Shown: positions 3,262 to 3,986 of the stretch, piece by piece
Layout of the letters: each line of letters starts with the position of its first letter
How positions within the stretch are numbered: position 1 is the stretch's first letter
Virus record (IMG/VR): IMGVR_UViG_3300031521_000016
Span: 35,895 to 99,894 of that record
Strand: one strand, 5' to 3'
Origin: a virus
Taxonomy: Duplodnaviria; Heunggongvirae; Uroviricota; Caudoviricetes
DNA: 64,000 nucleotides
The notes under the pieces: model-generated
Database searches by the model: none
Told to the model about the DNA's origin: nothing
Seen by the model: only the letters and a program-made list of their open reading frames with translations
Translations under genes and position numbers: made by a program

Positions 3262-3439
3262 CAGTTATTAAATTTGTCGATATATCTTGATCGTAGAAAG
3301 ACAATGGCAGAAATCTGAAGTTGATACTATCCCATAAAACTACCATGTATCCGCAGTTATGATCAATCTTCACTAGAACTTCTTTCATGTGAAATTTAGG
3401 ACCGGGTAAATGTCCTTGACCTACATAATGCCAAGTCAT
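3230..3439 (-). CDS. hypothetical protein
   Basis: Track ORF; small overlap with the neighbouring gene. Confidence 0.3.
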   Translation of the reverse strand: MTWHYVGQGHLPGPKFHMKEVLVKIDHNCGYMVVLWDSINFRFLPLSFYDQDISTNLITGVSHWCEITV

Positions 3440-3783
3440 AATGAGTAATACTGTTTCATATCCTCTCTGATTTCAAATTTCCCGTCTGGATTGAAAACAA
3501 TAGCCGCTTTTTTCACCAAAGGAGCATCTTCATGATCGAATCTACCGTCCATCTCATATAGAATAAACAGCTTCTCATTCAAATCTTGTGCTAATTGTAC
3601 AAGCGTCTCCTTACTTTTCGTGATATCGATGTCACCGAACCATACTTTGTTTTTTTCAGTACATATATTCGCATTAAATATTACGAAATTGTCTGGATTT
3701 TTCTGTCTGTACCATGACTTACTGCCAGATAACATTACTCCGTAATAACCTAGCTTTTTTACTATTTGTTCTTGATCTATCAT
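3436..3783 (-). CDS. hypothetical protein (shares N-terminal MIDQEQI with the next gene)
   Basis: Track ORF. A 20-nt direct repeat covers its start codon and the start codon of the adjacent gene. Confidence 0.45.
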   Translation of the reverse strand: MIDQEQIVKKLGYYGVMLSGSKSWYRQKNPDNFVIFNANICTEKNKVWFGDIDITKSKETLVQLAQDLNEKLFILYEMDGRFDHEDAPLVKKAAIVFNPDGKFEIREDMKQYYSL

Positions 3784-3785
3784 AA

Positions 3786-3986
3786 TTATGCGAATATTCC
3801 GTGTTCTATTTTCAGTAACTCATTTTCAATCAATTTAATGCCAACTGCATTATTGAGTAGTTCTTTTGGTTTTGACCCGCCTAATGCTAAATTCTCTACA
3901 TTAAGCCACTGTTCAAATTTTTCTTCATCAATAAAAACTTCTTTCCCTTTTTGAAAAATCTGCGATATTTGTTCTTGATCTATCAT
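3786..3986 (-). CDS. orphan ParS/MbcA/Xre-type antitoxin C-terminal domain (DUF2384-like)
   Basis: ALGGSKPKELLNNAVGIKLIENELLKIEHGIFA matches the LGGxxPxxLL...G...L.rIEhGvfa signature of the toxin-binding domain of RES-toxin antitoxins. Confidence 0.55.
   Translation of the reverse strand: MIDQEQISQIFQKGKEVFIDEEKFEQWLNVENLALGGSKPKELLNNAVGIKLIENELLKIEHGIFA

Follow-up and report, generated by a model that had tools for sequence, protein, structure and literature searches.

A toxin-less Xre/MbcA/ParS C-terminal domain in a Caudoviricetes genome and the 22-nt direct repeat that carries its start codon

The IMG/VR virus record IMGVR_UViG_3300031521_000016 (Duplodnaviria; Heunggongvirae; Uroviricota; Caudoviricetes) holds, within the stretch of 64,000 nucleotides (nt) analysed here (positions 35,895 to 99,894 of the record, hereafter the window), two adjacent genes on the minus strand that begin with the same seven codons, namely g66 (66 amino acids (aa), 3786-3986) and g115 (115 aa, 3436-3783). 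The product of g66 resembles the antitoxins that neutralise RES toxins, and RES-domain degraders of nicotinamide adenine dinucleotide (NAD+) have only recently been shown to defend bacteria against phages. This raises the question of how a phage came to carry an antitoxin domain with no toxin beside it, why its start is a copy of that of the neighbouring gene and what its product might do during infection. Our favoured explanation, held with moderate confidence, is that g66 is the C-terminal domain of a type II Xre-RES antitoxin from Bacteroidota, captured without its helix-turn-helix (HTH) and without the RES gene, and that it would block a RES toxin of the host.

A stand-alone toxin-binding domain and its cellular relatives

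The product of g66 is a DUF2384/Xre_MbcA_ParS_C toxin-binding domain. It matches Pfam PF09722 (Xre_MbcA_ParS_C) with an E-value of 6.4e-11 and 42.5 bits, above the gathering cut-off of 24.5; the match spans residues 15-63 of the protein and positions 3-51 of the 51 in the profile. A profile made from its close relatives hits the solved antitoxins 8GUG_B, ParS (6D0H_B) and Xre (6GW6_B), and its AlphaFold2 (AF2) model, with a predicted local distance difference test (pLDDT) score of 89.3, was matched by Foldseek to the antitoxin chains of the RES-type complexes 8GUG, 6D0H, 6GW6/9R35, 8QNQ and 6FKG (query-normalised template modelling (TM) score 0.70-0.84). The PF09722 hit and these five fold matches bear out an earlier, preliminary description of the locus, which had read the 66-aa product as a DUF2384 domain and had named profile searches as a test that it could fail. 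All invariant positions of the domain (F18, W27, P40, G49, I60 and G63) are kept, together with all the near-invariant ones and the complete ...KIEHGIFA C-terminus.

The type II RES-Xre antitoxins (MbcA, ParS, P. putida Xre, NatR and VPA0769) combine an HTH (PF20432) with PF09722 and are described by NCBIfam NF049845. They are like g66 in the sequence and predicted fold of the C-terminal domain, including the tail that blocks RES. Unlike them, g66 has no N-terminal Xre-like HTH, only five to six residues preceding its domain, and it therefore lacks DNA binding and autoregulation. It is also phage-encoded, has no adjacent RES toxin and covers only positions 52-112 of the 112 in NF049845, scoring 65 bits against a cut-off of 90. 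Finally, an unrelated phage gene supplies its first residues: residues 1-5 have no antitoxin counterpart, and the antitoxin-derived part runs from residue 5 or 6 to residue 66.

An exhaustive HMMER search with g66 gave 1108 homologues; those listed align residues 6/7-66 of g66 to their own C-terminus, and most of them are about 100-250 aa long. With one genome per species, 565 relatives were found, and at least 78 of the best 80 genomic matches belong to Bacteroidota, including Paludibacter, Bacteroidales, Weeksellaceae, Pontibacter and Mucilaginibacter. In 67 of 77 of the best-match loci, the antitoxin gene (about 142 aa) overlaps by 4 nt the next open reading frame (ORF), which encodes about 152 aa, and in about 72 of the 77 the downstream ORF lies within about 20 nt. 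Pfam scans identified Xre-like-HTH plus PF09722 in all three antitoxins and PF08808 RES in all five downstream ORFs that were scanned (E 1e-24 to 6e-29). The closest relative, P0020, is 70% identical to g66 and lies in the same HTH-DUF2384/RES arrangement on a contig with a GC content of 34%.

Further candidates for orphan domains of this kind were considered and set aside. Most of the short DUF2384 proteins in databases start within the HTH region and look like fragments. The one on a long contig, P0093, adjoins a RES gene on a contig of 2.55x coverage and may be a frameshifted full-length antitoxin. Matches to a DUF2384 alignment in IMG/VR came down to two loci, both of them complete Xre-RES modules in high-GC P2-like prophages (L110, 2665-3674, and L111, 2734-3662), where they lie beside a P2-type tail-tube-like gene and probably serve the lysogen as temperate-phage cargo. 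These two, like the complete modules described on temperate phages (PMC9503650), share with g66 a DUF2384 protein on a viral contig; they differ in pairing a full two-domain antitoxin with a RES gene among P2-like tail genes of high-GC prophages, whereas g66 has neither toxin nor HTH.

Is the toxin then present elsewhere in the phage? A hidden Markov model (HMM) of 76 RES proteins from these cellular loci found nothing in the six-frame translation of the window (best E 1.6), and a full-antitoxin HMM found only g66, at HMM positions 83-143 of 143, with no match to the HTH part (positions 1-82) anywhere in that translation. RES was absent as well from the Pfam hits of the neighbouring genes and from the precomputed Pfam hits on contigs that reach about 8 kb past the window start. 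g66 is an orphan, with neither HTH nor RES gene in the window or within about 8 kb beyond its start, and the earlier remark that no RES toxin is nearby holds. The stretch covered amounts to about 72 kb (the window and those 8 kb), out of at least 140 kb for the whole genome, which counts against our favoured explanation and leaves room for a split module, in which the RES partner of g66 would be encoded at another place in the phage genome or g66 would shield the phage from a RES effector of its own. Temperate phages do carry complete Xre-RES modules (PMC9503650). Nevertheless, RES stands directly downstream of the antitoxin in about 72 of the 77 cellular loci and in the two viral ones that were inspected, and none was found in the 72 kb, and we consider a split module extremely unlikely.

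The gene that does follow g66 is g115, which overlaps the next gene by 4 nt. Its family is widespread among large phages: 18 diverse homologues were found, and IMG/VR gave 166 hits, on contigs as long as 429 kb. Its AF2 model is confident and 13 family residues are invariant, including FNxN, KxWxGD and ExDxRF, and it has no match in Pfam, PHROGs, PDB or the named entries of BFVD. Neither Pfam nor the RES HMM gave a RES signal in g115, and it shows no RES domain or ADP-ribosyltransferase (ART)-like fold. The two genes could be imagined as a novel toxin-antitoxin-like or regulator-effector pair in which g66 neutralises or modulates g115; they are adjacent, 2 nt apart, in the antitoxin-first order typical of Xre-RES loci, and their first seven residues are the same. 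However, g115 is not RES-like and occurs alone in many phages, no g66-like neighbour being present at the g115-family loci inspected, so that it is not a conserved partner of g66 and such a pair is very unlikely.

The direct repeat and the joints of the fragment

The 20-mer ATTTGTTCTTGATCTATCAT occurs exactly twice in the window, at 3764-3783 and 3967-3986; the number of matches expected when up to three mismatches are allowed is 0.03, and none of 100 shuffles reached two. Both copies are thus as real as the preliminary description had them, which gave the second correctly and placed the first, at 3766-3785, 2 nt off. Their identity extends to 22 nt (TATTTGTTCTTGATCTATCATA, 3763-3784 and 3966-3987), and no further copy of the 22-mer was found in the 64 kb with up to three mismatches allowed. 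Read on the coding strand, which is the minus strand, as T-ATG ATA GAT CAA GAA CAA ATA, the repeat supplies the ATG and the first seven codons of both genes, and the N-terminus MIDQEQI that had been assigned to both ORFs is confirmed; the order of the two had been inverted, g66 being transcribed first on this strand. The two copies recur at an unchanged spacing of 203 nt in 20 contigs that were assembled independently from JGI, ENA and Logan samples, which excludes an assembly artefact, a concern raised earlier. A 21st contig begins within g66, and every recovered contig that spans the region carries both copies. The contigs with the repeat are at least 98.8% identical over 1128 nt and therefore represent one phage population.

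The copy at 3966-3987 provides the only in-frame start open to g66, and its ATG overlaps the TGA stop codon (ATGA) of an upstream cupin gene (124 aa, 3983-4357, minus strand), to which the start of g66 is translationally coupled. The copy at 3763-3784 starts g115. Apart from the T at -1, the stretches that precede the two ATGs are unrelated, and the genes thus have no ribosome-binding region in common. With its first base 1 nt 5' of the ATG, the repeat brings no upstream initiation signal with it. Of the two explanations proposed earlier for the repeat, a shared translation-initiation cassette does not fit these features, while a recombination is favoured by where the antitoxin homology begins, in the 3' end of the repeat, and by the fact that the repeat holds the only start of the fragment.

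Homology to antitoxins sets in at residue 5-7 of g66 (6/7 by HMMER), inside the last 6-9 nt of the repeat. In a gapped nucleotide alignment with a 3-codon deletion after I10, GAACAAATATCGCAGATT agrees with GAAAAAATATTGCAGATT of a Paludibacter locus at 16 of 18 nt; the same alignment against L193, the closest locus, gives 13 of 18 and an ungapped one 9 of 18. The N-terminus of g115, MIDQEQIVKKLGYYG, is colinear with those of its own family (MEEILIKHLGYYG and MNLLIEQLSMSLGYPG), and the 22 nt are therefore read as native to g115 and later duplicated. At the other end g66 closes with GCA-TAA-TT (3784-3791, minus strand), that is, its last sense codon, the stop codon and a 2-nt spacer ahead of the ATG of g115, where cellular loci read GCATGAT(A/C/T)G, the antitoxin stop overlapping the RES start. 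That RES start reads ATGAT in 93% of the cellular loci and ATGATAG in 10%, including L193 and L112 (RES genes at 5528-5986 and 3183-3638), the two loci nearest to g66 at the nucleotide level. In L193 the antitoxin/RES junction is GC-ATGATAG, the last seven letters of which are identical to those that follow the leading T of the repeat.

Together, the start of homology, the colinearity of g115 and the ATGATAG start locate a recombination joint where the repeat ends on its 3' side. The duplication is best understood as a scar left when a gene fragment was captured in frame. A startless 3' fragment of an antitoxin gene would have been joined in frame behind the first seven codons of g115 with duplication of 22 nt, whereby g66 would gain a start coupled to the cupin gene and g115 would retain its own. 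We infer both the mechanism of this capture and its direction from the joints; a likely route would be illegitimate recombination or a double template switch at two short microhomologies, one between GAACAAATA and the E-K-I codons of the antitoxin, the other between ATGATAG and the RES start of the donor. The template switch would exit the phage after ...GAACAAATA, enter the donor at the E-K-I codons, copy about 180 nt as far as the antitoxin/RES junction and re-enter the phage at ATGATAG, 22 nt behind the exit, which would give exactly this duplication.

Three observations weigh against this account. The template-switch model predicts GCATGATAG at the 3' joint, and the phage has GCATAATTATGATAG, which is 6 nt longer; the surplus may reflect either a donor with other spacing or later changes. 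The closest donor-like gene has a nucleotide identity of 74% and a synonymous divergence (dS) of about 1.2, yet the two repeat copies are identical at 22 of 22 positions, so that either the donor is unsampled or something else keeps the copies identical. No sister phage without g66 was found, and the ancestral cupin-g115 junction is thus a reconstruction; a search of metagenome_contigs for a cupin-22mer-g115 junction returned nothing, in a collection which, by a g115 query, does not contain this phage, and its result was not used.

The perfect identity of the two 22-mers remains partly unexplained by a capture, and it could also mean that the repeat is kept identical as a functional element, for example as the operator for a translational repressor or a small RNA that co-regulates both genes. 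The copies are perfect and show no single-nucleotide polymorphisms (SNPs) among 17 contigs of the population despite the large divergence of g66 from known donors, and they take the same position relative to the ATG. At a population diversity of about 1%, however, 22 nt are too short for the absence of SNPs to mean much. Besides, the element would exist in only two copies in 64 kb even with three mismatches, would start 1 nt before the ATG without any upstream initiation region and would leave unexplained why the repeat ends exactly where the homology to antitoxins sets in. We therefore regard a functional repeat as quite unlikely.

Constraint on g66 and its putative role

A captured fragment need not do anything, and g66 might be a neutral, functionless passenger that was acquired recently, lies in frame by chance and has not yet decayed. 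Identical 22-nt copies would fit a recent event, and the known relatives of the phage all belong to the one population of at least 98.8% identity. The SNPs of g66 in this population comprise one synonymous and three nonsynonymous changes (D20N, I64L and A66P), of which I64L and A66P fall in the C-terminal tail, which in homologues makes contact with the toxin and in MbcA and ParS plugs its active site; nonsynonymous changes make up three of four in g66 and two of seven in the cupin gene, numbers too small to call diversifying selection. Against the nearest cellular gene, nucleotide identity is 74%, with 79%, 87% and 57% at codon positions 1, 2 and 3, and the nonsynonymous divergence (dN) of 0.16 and dS of 1.19 give a ratio (omega) of 0.14; against other cellular loci the pairwise omega is 0.14-0.28. 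These are pairwise values, branch-specific dN/dS for g66 being unresolvable with dS saturated, and they indicate constraint at the protein level along the path between g66 and the cellular genes. They also show that either the true donor is unsampled or the capture was not recent. Such a long divergence under constraint argues against a passenger, and so do the retention of all invariant and near-invariant positions and of the full C-terminal tail, the phage-like composition of g66 (GC 31%, GC at third codon positions (GC3) 24%) and a start that is precise, in frame and translationally coupled. Moreover, g66 lies upstream in each of the 10 places that were retrieved independently with g115 as the only query. 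A neutral passenger is, in our judgement, unlikely.

The preferred reading, in which the captured domain works against RES toxins, draws on what is known of its homologues. The DUF2384 domain of Xre binds RES (PMC12204516). In MbcA, neutralisation is lost when the last ten residues are deleted, and the cleft of MbcT is filled by the C-terminus (PMC6436930), and ParS inserts its C-terminal carboxylate into ParT's active site (PMC7758455). Stand-alone RES proteins (aRES) defend against phages by NAD+ phosphorolysis, and phages answer them with a Macro-domain phosphatase, which extends the NAD+ rebuilding pathway, and with aRad1 inhibitors (bioRxiv 10.64898/2026.01.28.702374). g66 would be made early together with its neighbours and would bind a host RES toxin, an NAD+ phosphorylase or NADase, its conserved C-terminal tail plugging the active site as in MbcA, ParS and Xre. 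In this way it would block NAD+ depletion and abortive infection once the labile antitoxin of the host has been lost. A role against abortive infection, which the preliminary description had put forward as plausible, is consistent with what has been published on the antitoxin C-terminus and on RES-based defence. By this analogy we infer that g66 would bind and neutralise a RES toxin, and it is probably a decoy antitoxin that disarms one.

Two considerations hold this role in check: canonical Xre-RES pairs are absent from PADLOC, and the literature reviewed reports phage defence for stand-alone aRES proteins only and not for canonical pairs.

No literature linking DUF2384 to phage counter-defence was found, and in a survey of the NAD+ systems of viruses (PMC9503650) the RES-HTH modules mentioned on phages are all complete ones.

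Orphan antitoxins are an established means of counter-defence. Dmd of phage T4 is an orphan antitoxin-type counter-defence against RnlA/LsoA. Orphan antitoxins used in this way also include DarG-like proteins of T4-like phages (PMC11825919) and an antitoxin mimic of ICP1 directed against DarTG (PMC11481870). Like these, which are homologues or analogues of host antitoxins, g66 is encoded by a phage without the toxin and is proposed to counter a toxin-antitoxin system with which the host aborts infection, and its nearest homologues are chromosomal antitoxins of Bacteroidota; by sequence it would belong among the phage orphan antitoxins as a member with an unusually legible origin. It differs from them in its presumed target, the NAD+-degrading RES toxins, in having kept one antitoxin domain only and in joints of capture that are still visible as the 22-nt duplication; their function has been shown experimentally, whereas that of g66 is proposed. 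A further counterpart is aRad1, a small aRES inhibitor of phages whose action is a direct block of the RES active site (bioRxiv 10.64898/2026.01.28.702374), which is the role proposed for g66. No cellular ancestor of aRad1 is known, while the descent of g66 from an antitoxin is clear, and the two are unrelated in sequence: seven published aRad1 sequences (phmmer) and the aRad1 HMM gave no hit better than E 0.17 against all ORFs of the window. Nor does the window hold a homologue of the NAD+ counter-defence genes Adps, Adpp, Nmnat or aRad1.

If the preferred reading is true, an HTH-less phage copy of the toxin-binding domain of an antitoxin would constitute a third, host-derived route against RES, besides NAD+ rebuilding and aRad1. 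It would further be an indirect sign that ordinary Xre-RES pairs, which are very common in Bacteroidota, press on phages. The duplicated start region would make this an unusually legible case of a host gene fragment turned into an expressed phage protein. More tentatively, and with somewhat less conviction than we attach to the capture and the block of a host toxin, it is possible that the canonical Xre-RES modules of Bacteroidota are themselves abortive-infection defences which the phage beats with a stolen domain, and that the 22-nt duplication preserves both joints, ATGATAG and GA(A/G)AAAATA, of a double template switch. In that case the duplication would illustrate how part of a host immunity gene, lacking a start of its own, came to work as a phage gene through the start borrowed from its neighbour.

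Surroundings of g66 in the phage genome

All genes of the window lie on the minus strand. The window has a GC content of 33%, no tRNA genes and the hallmarks of a phage, with PHROG hits to portal, helicase and polymerase. g66 is also present on a contig of 140,106 bp. Among GenBank phages neither blastn with the 2 kb around the site nor tblastn with g66 gave a match, and IMG/VR scans with single proteins (g115 alone, and the cupin) found no relatives.

Upstream of g66, a 12-nt tandem repeat (TATAGAATGTGC TATAGAATGTTC, 4372-4395) lies in the short gap between a 130-aa gene and the cupin gene. Further upstream, between an Endonuclease_NS gene and the 130-aa gene, a GC-rich 10-bp hairpin followed by a run of T (4794-4817, minus strand) looks like a terminator, and the transcription unit to which g66 belongs may begin here.

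On the other side of g115 are split HldE-like genes, one with the heptose-7-phosphate kinase domain I (E 3e-30) and one with the heptose-1-phosphate adenylyltransferase domain II (E 4e-29), at 1819-2649 and 2818-3261, and the cupin (3983-4357) near them is similar to phosphomannose isomerase (PMI). Just past the window start (L006, 11401-14455) are a thymidylate-synthase-like gene, a GT2 glycosyltransferase and a UDP-N-acetylglucosamine (UDP-GlcNAc) 2-epimerase. Together with the HldE-like genes and the cupin these may form a module for nucleotide sugars or DNA hypermodification. Elsewhere, the neighbours of g115-family genes comprise AAA_33 kinases, a DNA-polymerase-like ORF and PF01467-like cytidylyltransferase-family genes related to the window gene at 2818-3261.

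Apart from these, TTCTTC-rich repeats with spacings of 12 and 18 nt occupy 59750-59863, inside an ORF of 858 aa (59366-61942) that has no PHROG hit. The motif TGTTATATTWG occurs five times in the window, against 0.31 expected, on the minus strand at 21561, 39516, 45874, 52695 and 53462, always on the coding strand, inside longer repeats and apparently between ORFs. Within it, TAnnTT(T/A)G resembles the -7 element of Bacteroidota promoters, and the sites are candidate phage promoters. This candidate motif, along with the taxonomy of the g66 homologues, suggests a host among the Bacteroidota.

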